From positions 113,809 through 177,808 of IMG/VR virus record IMGVR_UViG_3300031555_003442: 64,000 nucleotides of DNA; one strand, given 5' to 3'. Below are positions 53,011 through 54,792 of this stretch, one piece after another; the stretch's first letter is position 1; each line of letters opens with the position of its first letter. The stretch is from a virus. Taxonomy: Duplodnaviria; Caudoviricetes. The position numbers and the translations under genes were made by a program. A model generated the notes under the pieces. The model was not told the origin of the DNA, ran no database searches, and worked only from the letters and a program-made list of their open reading frames with translations.

Positions 53011-53433
53011 ATGACAGAAGAAGAATTTTTACGAATGGCAAAGACATACGGCGTCCGTGTAGGGGCCGAAAAGACTTATCCAGAATATCCCGAACGAGAT
53101 TTTAAGGAACTCGTGCTGGCTGACACCCACGTCGGCACAATCAGCTACCAGACACATTTCGACGATGTGAAAAAGAATGGCCGCTATGTTATCATCCACC
53201 CAGACCCGTACAGGATTCGCAGGGTTGATGACGAATGCAAGGTCGATGAAATTACCGAAGAAAAGTTCGTCGCCATGCTTCGCCGCCATGACATGTTCAA
53301 CTCCGAAAAGATTCTCGACATGATGGACAGGCTGACGGGCTATCTCGATGACGTGACATACTTACTCCAACGACTAAAGTCGTGGGATTCTGGGAGTTGC
53401 CACGGATGGGCAACGTGTCCCAAAGGTAGATGA
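53011..53433 (+). CDS. Hypothetical protein interrupted by IS; C-terminus now read from the IS right end
   Basis: Native frame to 53352; original tail at 54716-54784 rejoins in frame. Confidence 0.7.
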   Translation: MTEEEFLRMAKTYGVRVGAEKTYPEYPERDFKELVLADTHVGTISYQTHFDDVKKNGRYVIIHPDPYRIRRVDDECKVDEITEEKFVAMLRRHDMFNSEKILDMMDRLTGYLDDVTYLLQRLKSWDSGSCHGWATCPKGR

Positions 53434-53445
53434 CCCTACCTTGCA
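53353..53445 (-). ncRNA. Predicted omega/reRNA scaffold 3' part (overlaps tnpB end); guide continues into 53352-53333
   Basis: Stacked hairpins GGTAG..CTACC, TGGGA..GTTGCC..GGCAAC.TCCCA and RE hairpin; 5' boundary unknown. Confidence 0.6.
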
Positions 53446-54504
53446 TAAATTGATTGCGGCGTTCCTATCTCGGTCGTGCTCCGCACCACAGCTAGGACAT
53501 ATCCAATGACGAATGGACACATCCTTTAGTTCGTGGTTCTGATAACCACATTCAGAGCATAACTGACTAGATGGATACCACTTGTCTGCGTACATGACGG
53601 TCTTTCCAGTCTTATGAGCTACATATTCAAGAATATTCAAGAAGGTGTTAAAACCGAAGTCGTACATAGACTTCTTGTACTTCTTGGATAGGTTTGCTAG
53701 GTCTAGCGTTTCAAACACCATTACATCGTAGTCACGACACATCTGCCGAGCTAACTTCCAATGCATGTCCGACCGCTGATTGGCGACCTTCTCGTGTAGC
53801 TTCTGCAATGTACGCAGCGAGCCTCGCTTACCTTTAGACTTTCGGTATTTCTCCGATAAGTTCCTTAAAGACGCTAGGTTCTTACGCAGTAGCTTTGGCA
53901 TAGAACAGTCGTCGCCGTTAGAGGAAACCAAGAAGTCGTGCAGACTGAAGTCGAAACCAACGATTTCACCCGATTTAGTCCACTCTGTCTGTGTACATTC
54001 TTGCTCTACGACGATGTATATGTAGAATCCGTTGCTCTTGCGTTTGACGGTTAGAGTTTTAATCTTGCCGTCGAAATCCCTGCTGTTCCAGTAGGGGAAG
54101 TCTTTCTTGCCTATCTTAACACGATTGCTGTCATGAAACTTATACCCAGCTTGCTTCGTTGTGAACGAATGATATTTAGCCGTCTTCTGGAAGTGAGGAG
54201 GATTAGTCTTCTTGCCAGCCTTCAAGTTCGAAAAGAACAACCGATATGCCCGGTCAATCCTATCCGTTATGTCTTGGATTGCTTGCGATGGAACTTCGTT
54301 CCACTCTGGGTACTGGCGTTTCAATTTGGTTAAGTGCTTCTGCAACTGATACTTGTTGAGCATCTTGTGATAGAGACTATAATACCGACGATGCAGAGCA
54401 ATGCAATGGTTATATATCCGACCAGCAATAACAAGTATATTGTCGAGATACTTCAAAGCATCCCGATTGTACAGCTTGTATTTGTATGTCTTCAATTCAA
54501 CCAT
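53374..54504 (-). CDS. tnpB: TnpB RNA-guided endonuclease
   Basis: KTYKYKLY, RIYNHC, VGFDF, VFETLD, YPSSQLCSECG, CPSCG..HDRDRNAAINL. Confidence 0.95.
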   Translation of the reverse strand: MVELKTYKYKLYNRDALKYLDNILVIAGRIYNHCIALHRRYYSLYHKMLNKYQLQKHLTKLKRQYPEWNEVPSQAIQDITDRIDRAYRLFFSNLKAGKKTNPPHFQKTAKYHSFTTKQAGYKFHDSNRVKIGKKDFPYWNSRDFDGKIKTLTVKRKSNGFYIYIVVEQECTQTEWTKSGEIVGFDFSLHDFLVSSNGDDCSMPKLLRKNLASLRNLSEKYRKSKGKRGSLRTLQKLHEKVANQRSDMHWKLARQMCRDYDVMVFETLDLANLSKKYKKSMYDFGFNTFLNILEYVAHKTGKTVMYADKWYPSSQLCSECGYQNHELKDVSIRHWICPSCGAEHDRDRNAAINLCKVGSSTFGTRCPSVATPRIPRL

Positions 54505-54516
54505 AGGCAATTAGAA

Positions 54517-54625
54517 ATGCCCCGATGACGCTTTTTGTGGAGTTCAGCATCACCAGGGCATAAAAATCCTTGATTTCAATAAGCCGAGAACTCCACTAAT
54601 CGACCTATTCATAAATAAGTTTATA
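54517..54625 (-). ncRNA. Late promoter plus two-hairpin kissing-loop leader of tnpB-2
   Basis: TATAAACT 54625-54618; loop GUGGAGUUC (54596-54588) complementary to loop GAACUCCAC (54545-54537). Confidence 0.7.
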
Positions 54626-54630
54626 ACATT

Positions 54631-54675
54631 TTACTTTTTCTTTTGGTCTTCAATGTACCTAGTGACTGTTTGTTG
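54631..54675 (-). pseudogene. tnpA: C-terminal stub of Y1 HUH transposase
   Basis: QQTVTRYIEDQKKK*, matching the YIxxQ catalytic helix. Confidence 0.7.
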
Positions 54676-54763
54676 GCATCATCCCACGGATAAAGACTTG
54701 GGCTTTCGGTTCAGCGTAATGCCGAGAATCGAAATGATTTTCGGTTTTTTTCATATCCATGTC

Positions 54764-54792
54764 TTGCCAAATCCGATTAAATAGACTATATT
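54764..54792 (+). promoter_or_regulatory. Sigma70-like early promoter
   Basis: TTGCCA-N17-TATATT. Confidence 0.7.

Follow-up and report, generated by a model that had tools for sequence, protein, structure and literature searches.

An IS608-like element without its transposase gene in a giant rumen phage: sequence relationships pointing to recombination-borne transfer and possible RNA-guided homing between phages

Results

The studied locus belongs to a giant (jumbo) rumen phage. The window, by which we mean the whole 64,000-nucleotide stretch that was analysed, forms the final 64 kb of an IMG/VR record of 177,808 bases with a CheckV completeness of 42%; for this phage group, a genome size of about 420 kb is suggested by the 422-kb contig from which L044 and L034 derive. 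On the minus strand of the window, positions 53353..54715 are occupied by a 1363-bp IS608-like element of the IS200/IS605 type, composed of a left end (LE), a remnant of tnpA, an intact tnpB and a right end (RE). More than 10 copies from other phage contigs define its outer positions as 54715 (LE) and 53353 (RE), with homology limits read in L003-L008, L013 and L038. Homology with six other copies begins 4 nt outside LE, at a common TTAC, and stops at the RE tip. This TTAC (54716..54719, minus strand), which is the target and the presumptive TAM, stands directly 5' of LE in 6 independent copies that have otherwise unrelated flanks upstream.

Comparison with the relatives revealed a shared architecture. 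TTAC precedes an LE in which AAAG accompanies a flawless 8-bp hairpin; RE comprises GAAT, a second hairpin, also of 8 bp, a short linker and mostly TCAA, beyond which the flank is unrelated. No terminal inverted repeats are expected in this family, whose hairpins are subterminal; the window copy has kept the one at RE and lost the one at LE. In the window, the left guide tetranucleotide AAAG (54703-54706) lies 5' of the LE hairpin (54683-54702), the two together spanning 54683..54706 (minus strand) by alignment and DNA fold, and GAAT (53387-53390) lies 5' of the RE hairpin, in agreement with AAAG/TTAC and GAAT/TCAA pairing. These are the tetranucleotides of IS608, where the left and right cleavage sites are TTAC (CL) and TCAA (CR) and the guides AAAG (GL) and GAAT (GR) (PMC5934647). 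The assignment to IS608-like elements made by an initial annotation of this DNA is upheld. Its description of the ends holds for TTAC, AAAG, GAAT and a TCAC tip but not throughout, as the RE linker reads AGTAAGTATG, with a duplicated AGTA, rather than AGTATG, and the LE hairpin is unfolded. Insertion takes place 3' of TTAC without target duplication, as seen from TTAC at the 6 LE flanks and from two filled/empty pairs, namely L038 against L044 and the window RE flank against the L011-type allele.

The tnpB gene (53374..54504, minus strand) encodes an intact protein of 376 aa with the Pfam domains OrfB_IS605 and Cas12f1-like TNB. Residues 2-355 align to the TnpB of ISDra2 (8EXA, 8H1J) with an E value of 1.8e-45, and the alignment bears out the earlier reading that the RuvC D/E/D residues and the zinc finger, with both CxxC pairs, are kept; by its residues, TnpB is predicted to be catalytically intact. 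Compared with eight other copies, tnpB has a dN/dS of 0.04-0.08, and with the 98%-identical copy a value of 0.074 (dN 0.0056, dS 0.076). These ratios indicate strong purifying selection on TnpB over the same period in which the substrates of TnpA decayed. Six contigs, drawn from at least 4 samples, encode the identical TnpB protein within the same gene order. The same IS-bearing allele occurs in at least 4 further samples, and the one compared as DNA was 99.97% identical over 2.9 kb. Far outside the window there is a second TnpB-like gene (G000:C1:14537-15622, minus strand), with an open frame of 470 aa that is 30% identical to the TnpB studied here.

The 3' part of a putative omega-RNA scaffold, folding into three stems, occupies 53353..53450 (minus strand). 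It includes GAAT, the RE hairpin (53367-53386), the linker (53359-53366) and the tip (53353-53356). Close copies do not vary in these three stems, which lie within the final ~95 nt of the element; the compensatory changes of the consensus fold are all contributed by the divergent copy L005. A scan against Rfam with E values up to 1 returned no family for the scaffold or its region. A 348-kb viral contig (L036:475-704, plus strand) contains nothing of the element but its final ~95 nt, namely the three stems and a TCAA tip, preceded by unrelated sequence; this piece represents a copy that was truncated or an independent guide-RNA gene. Upstream of tnpB and inside the element, the motif TATAAACT (54618..54625, minus strand) is present in 5/7 aligned IS copies. 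Its count over the window is 9, compared with 1.34 expected, and includes the copy inside the element; this suggests that the IS lineage carries a promoter of phage type.

In contrast to tnpB, the parts of the element that serve transposition are decayed. Relative to L038, the window copy misses 340 nt of tnpA, has lost the LE hairpin, carries the AGTA duplication and reads TCAC instead of TCAA at its RE tip. What is left of tnpA are its last 14 codons and the stop (54631..54675, minus strand), at the place where L038 has a Y1_Tnp ORF of 117 aa. The limits of the deletion were read directly from the window and L038 sequences, and it is bounded by a GCC microhomology. A Y1 transposase was searched for in both the element and the whole 177,808-base record and was absent from either. 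As DNA, the LE hairpin folds with -2.0 kcal/mol in the window (z +0.76), compared with -7.8 in L038 and -14.2 in L007, the hairpin being perfect in relatives, while the RE hairpin is retained with one mismatch (-5.2 kcal/mol). The AGTA duplication affects the RE linker at 53359-53366 and TCAC the tip at 53353-53356. The RE tips of 16 other distinct readable copies are mostly TCAA, a few TCAG or TTAG, and one copy is without such a tip; TCAC was seen in 0/16. The window copy is, as far as its gene content and ends tell, a non-autonomous derivative without TnpA. The LE hairpin has also diverged independently in L038:2460-2480 and in the window (54683-54702), with 3 and 4 changes, respectively, from the family consensus per 20 nt. 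Elsewhere the two copies diverge by 2%, as though phage-borne copies could afford to lose the TnpA substrate or gained from doing so.

The nearest relative of the window copy was found in L013 and, in its complete version, in L038, which is 98% identical and in which tnpA is present. The L038 TnpA of 117 aa matches Y1_Tnp with an E value of 2.8e-32 and the ISHp608 TnpA (2a6m) with 5.7e-22. The L038 element ends in a canonical TCAA tip and sits 3' of a TTAC at the stop of a small gene designated sg1, 430 bp from the junction in the window. Its exact empty site exists in L044, on the 422-kb contig, where the end of sg1 is followed by GTAATG and the terminator, with no sg2; therefore, the insertion in L038 was clean. 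We infer from these comparisons that the window copy is derived from an L038-like element in a sister phage lineage. The L038 TnpA (L038:2520-2873, plus strand) retains both HUH motif and tyrosine region but is devoid of ~15 residues (Pfam positions ~77-95) that solved TnpAs possess; given this short TnpA, even the "autonomous" L038 copy may be defective.

A protein search retrieved 6 related copies in IMG/VR, the RE motif was found in 18 contigs, and more relatives occur in rumen MAG contigs. The window copy is a descendant of an IS608-like tnpA-tnpB element circulating among a group of rumen jumbo phages. Within the 177,808-base record the element is present in a single copy. GenBank phage records (50,697), searched with the region by BLAST in near and distant modes, gave no match. 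Three rumen MAG contigs labelled Fibrobacter and Prevotella (L016, L017, L018) have one and the same IS insertion, flanked identically at RE, across these two genera, and one 37-kb contig among them bears two copies of the IS. They are probably phage contigs mis-binned into MAGs, and as such weak evidence on the host. L014 carries an extra copy of the element 3.4 kb upstream (L014:1-125, plus strand), in opposite orientation and with a canonical TCAA, while both sites studied here are IS-free in it; the corresponding region of the window is 78% identical and has neither an element nor a TTAC at the homologous position 49627. Other viral contigs (L021:3222-3451, minus strand; L025; L035) contain mini-elements of ~45 nt with a single hairpin, which read TTAC, an LE-type prefix with AAAG, an RE-type hairpin, a linker and TCAA. 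They look like elements in which LE and RE have collapsed into one, or like minimal mobilisable units.

The flank 3' of RE supplies a predicted 20-nt guide (53333..53352, minus strand). In the IS-free alleles a TTAC directly precedes the corresponding sequence, which matches the guide at 19/20 positions in the L011-type (mismatch at position 16) and at 16/20 in the L013/L014-type. TTAC together with the 19/20 match occurs in at least 7 IS-free contigs of a 97%-identical lineage. A second pair is provided by L038, whose guide finds TTAC and 20/20 in L014. Hence, the prediction that the guide is the RE flank stands, as does that of TTAC as TAM, on the evidence of the 6 LE flanks and the two filled/empty pairs. 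It is likewise correct that the resident copy reads TCAC in place of the TAM, which differs from TTAC at a single position.

The element truncates a phage ORF (53011..53433, plus strand) that is native over 53011-53352 (114 aa) and whose last 26 aa are read from RE. IS-free relatives with the ORF that is interrupted here were found in L002/L012, L011 and L039-L043, with flanks 97% identical, and in the more distant L013, L014 and L044. There, the ORF ends in VIAMKRKLDG*; downstream of it come sg1, a gene of 130 aa, in most cases sg2, of 64 aa, and finally the terminator. The ORF tail and the 130-aa gene are kept in 10/10 IS-free loci (L002, L011, L013, L014, L039-L044). The intact ORF has 124 aa in L002, L011 and L039-L043, and a fused form of 140 aa is present in 4 other samples. 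The ORF tail, sg1, sg2 and both neighbouring genes had no match in Pfam/PHROG, and sg1 was not found elsewhere in the 177,808-base record. Among the matches listed, IS-bearing and IS-free alleles did not occur together in any sample.

These alleles change the account of the insertion given by the initial annotation, whose observations are borne out in part and whose interpretation is likewise supported in part. It had taken the in-frame rejoining of the ORF upon removal of the element as independent proof of the ends. However, the IS-free alleles end this ORF differently and carry one or two extra small genes, and the rejoined tail is the translation of an intrinsic terminator (54721-54745) and of the promoter region of the next gene. 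The predicted joined sequence had no match in IMG/VR, and on the LE side the empty alleles have a junction different from the reconstructed one, which speaks against simple insertion into that site. The annotation is corrected in that excision of the element fails to restore the ORF, because ~610 bp of phage DNA have been replaced.

The origin of the LE flank bears on the route of entry. The backbone of the window is 97% identical to the IS-free L011-type phages and ~79% to the donor lineage, and yet the flank at LE (CATTAC and the terminator) is identical in L038 and the window. This donor-type (L038/L044-like) tract, including the intrinsic terminator, covers 54716..54765 (plus strand), with the switch to L011-type between 54760 and 54775. 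Of the 11 informative sites nearest to LE on its outer side (54731-54760), 9 are donor-type (L038/L044/L014), whereas from 54768 on about 75/78 are recipient-type (L011/L039/L040); 5/5 IS-free L011-type contigs have the other version of the terminator. At RE, the flank is L011-type from the first base, with no donor tract, and RE adjoins a different TTAC, 430 bp from the L038 site and inside the neighbouring ORF.

Since TnpA transposition carries no flanking DNA, recombination would account for the transfer, on the LE side at any rate: the element would have entered an L011-like backbone by recombination between phages rather than by TnpA transposition, bringing along 45-60 nt of LE flank from an L038-like donor. 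On entry, the ORF tail, the two small genes sg1 and sg2 and the terminator stem, in total ~610 bp, would have been replaced. The lack of a donor tract at RE means that this junction needs a second event, which could be a TnpA-type strand transfer to TTAC or an illegitimate joining. In the first case, RE would have been transferred to the recipient TTAC and an A-to-C change would have followed; in the second, the last C of TTAC would have been retained at the joint. As a third route, selection may have picked out a junction that gave a usable guide. Given that the rest of the element is 2% diverged, its two tip anomalies may be a hint that the RE junction formed in an error-prone manner.

Two simpler routes were considered and set aside. 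An adjacent deletion after insertion into the first site leaves unaccounted for the donor-type LE flank that is common with L038. An intramolecular RE-adjacent deletion in the donor lineage, followed by homologous exchange, does not fit an RE flank that is recipient-type from its first base.

Discussion

With TnpA gone and LE dead, no further transposition of the window copy would be possible. Nevertheless, TnpB and the RE scaffold are conserved and the guide matches the empty site of the sister phages beside TTAC, and therefore TnpA-independent (non-restorative) RNA-guided homing or marker exclusion seems the most likely activity of what we consider a recombination-borne, tnpA-less IS608-like derivative; we assign a probability of about 0.6 to this reading. 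In a mixed infection, alleles without the IS would be cleaved by TnpB and its omega RNA; repair of the break on the template of the IS-bearing genome would then install the element and remove the genes beside it. Homing between co-infecting phages is plausible as a hypothesis. The donor-type flank tract is predicted by homing with co-conversion, and equally by ordinary mosaic recombination of phages. In addition, the omega RNA or the register of the guide may have been disturbed by the altered tip and by the 4 nt duplicated between RE hairpin and guide.

A more far-reaching version of homing, which we put forward tentatively and hold to be possible although rather doubtful, would make of this end-decayed, transposase-less element an RNA-guided gene drive among co-infecting jumbo phages. 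It would have crossed between 79%-identical lineages by break-induced recombination with a co-conversion tract of 45-60 nt, at the cost of two recipient genes, and the new RE junction at the recipient's TTAC would have re-aimed the guide, with selection favouring a drive-competent junction.

Alternatively, the element might be an inert relic, that is, a decaying copy fixed by hitch-hiking in one successful strain, whose low dN/dS stems from earlier active copies. The losses described above, of tnpA from element and record and of the LE hairpin, as well as the uniquely altered RE tip and the single copy in the record, are what such a relic would display. Still, a 376-aa ORF that is intact with all catalytic residues present is hardly expected of it, and silent changes have far outnumbered replacements since the split from L038, while the substrates of TnpA decayed. 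Given also the unchanged stems of the scaffold and a guide that matches the sister allele at positions 1-15, we consider an inert relic unlikely.

The insertion originally proposed, by TnpA and independently of that in L038, into an allele whose ORF ran into GTAATG and the terminator, fares somewhat worse and now appears quite improbable. It would account for an RE flank that begins exactly 3' of TTAC in empty alleles and for the open frame left on removal of the element, and an IS-free lineage lacking sg2 does exist. But the joined allele is without a counterpart in IMG/VR, where the ORF tail and the 130-aa gene are present at every one of the ten IS-free loci, its rejoined tail crosses a terminator, and its LE flank is that of L038, donor-type on an otherwise L011-type backbone. 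From this flank and the structure of the IS-free alleles it follows that such an insertion needs a prior deletion, a prior recombination and a second insertion beside the same flank. Domestication of TnpB for a phage function other than homing, for example RNA-guided repression or the cutting of host or rival DNA elsewhere, could draw on the phage-enriched TATAAACT motif upstream of tnpB and on the loss of TnpA, but is highly improbable, as the RuvC triad is intact here, in contrast to the exapted TnpB regulators known to be nuclease-dead, and the only evident guide is the RE flank matching the empty allele.

The element and the homing or marker exclusion proposed for it have counterparts in several known systems. 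Among them is IS608 (ISHp608 of Helicobacter pylori), which has the same TTAC, TCAA, AAAG and GAAT, subterminal hairpins and insertion 3' of TTAC, and whose order LE-tnpA-tnpB-RE is that of the L038 progenitor. Unlike IS608, the window copy resides in a jumbo-phage genome; it lacks tnpA, its LE hairpin is dead, its tip reads TCAC and 4 nt are duplicated at RE. Even the TnpA of L038 is short, with 117 aa and ~15 residues missing internally. ISDra2 TnpB, which Karvelis (2021) reportedly described with its omega RNA or reRNA, aligns to the present protein with D/E/D residues and zinc finger; as in ISDra2, the putative scaffold shares sequence with the 3' end of tnpB as well as with RE, the flank adjoining RE provides the predicted guide, and the predicted TAM equals the target. 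Here, however, this TAM is TTAC and the RE tip is altered.

With respect to mechanism, a study of plasmid populations is said to have found TnpB-driven, TnpA-independent spread of IS605. The mechanism proposed there is the same, in that an IS-free homologue is cut and repaired from the IS-bearing copy without need of TnpA, whereas the replicons in our case would be co-infecting phages and the evidence, a mosaic flank and a polymorphic site, is comparative only. Non-restorative homing into co-infected phages or plasmids has been proposed, and according to a review it has been shown for plasmids (PMC13565253). A homing role of TnpB has been shown for chromosomes and plasmids and only proposed for phages, and it is here that the locus adds to the picture, as it indicates movement between phages by recombination and not by transposition. 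Our model is also reminiscent of the free-standing homing endonucleases of T-even phages such as SegF (intronless homing, marker exclusion), in which a nuclease gene sits at the boundary of exchange, the flank is co-converted and the neighbours are replaced, although recognition would rely on an RNA guide and a TAM instead of on protein, and the nuclease is of transposon origin. Family and mechanism are already known or proposed; what distinguishes the locus is an unusually complete natural series, consisting of the tnpA-bearing progenitor in L038, its exact empty site in L044, the tnpA-less derivative transplanted along with a donor flank, and many IS-free sisters that carry both TAM and target.
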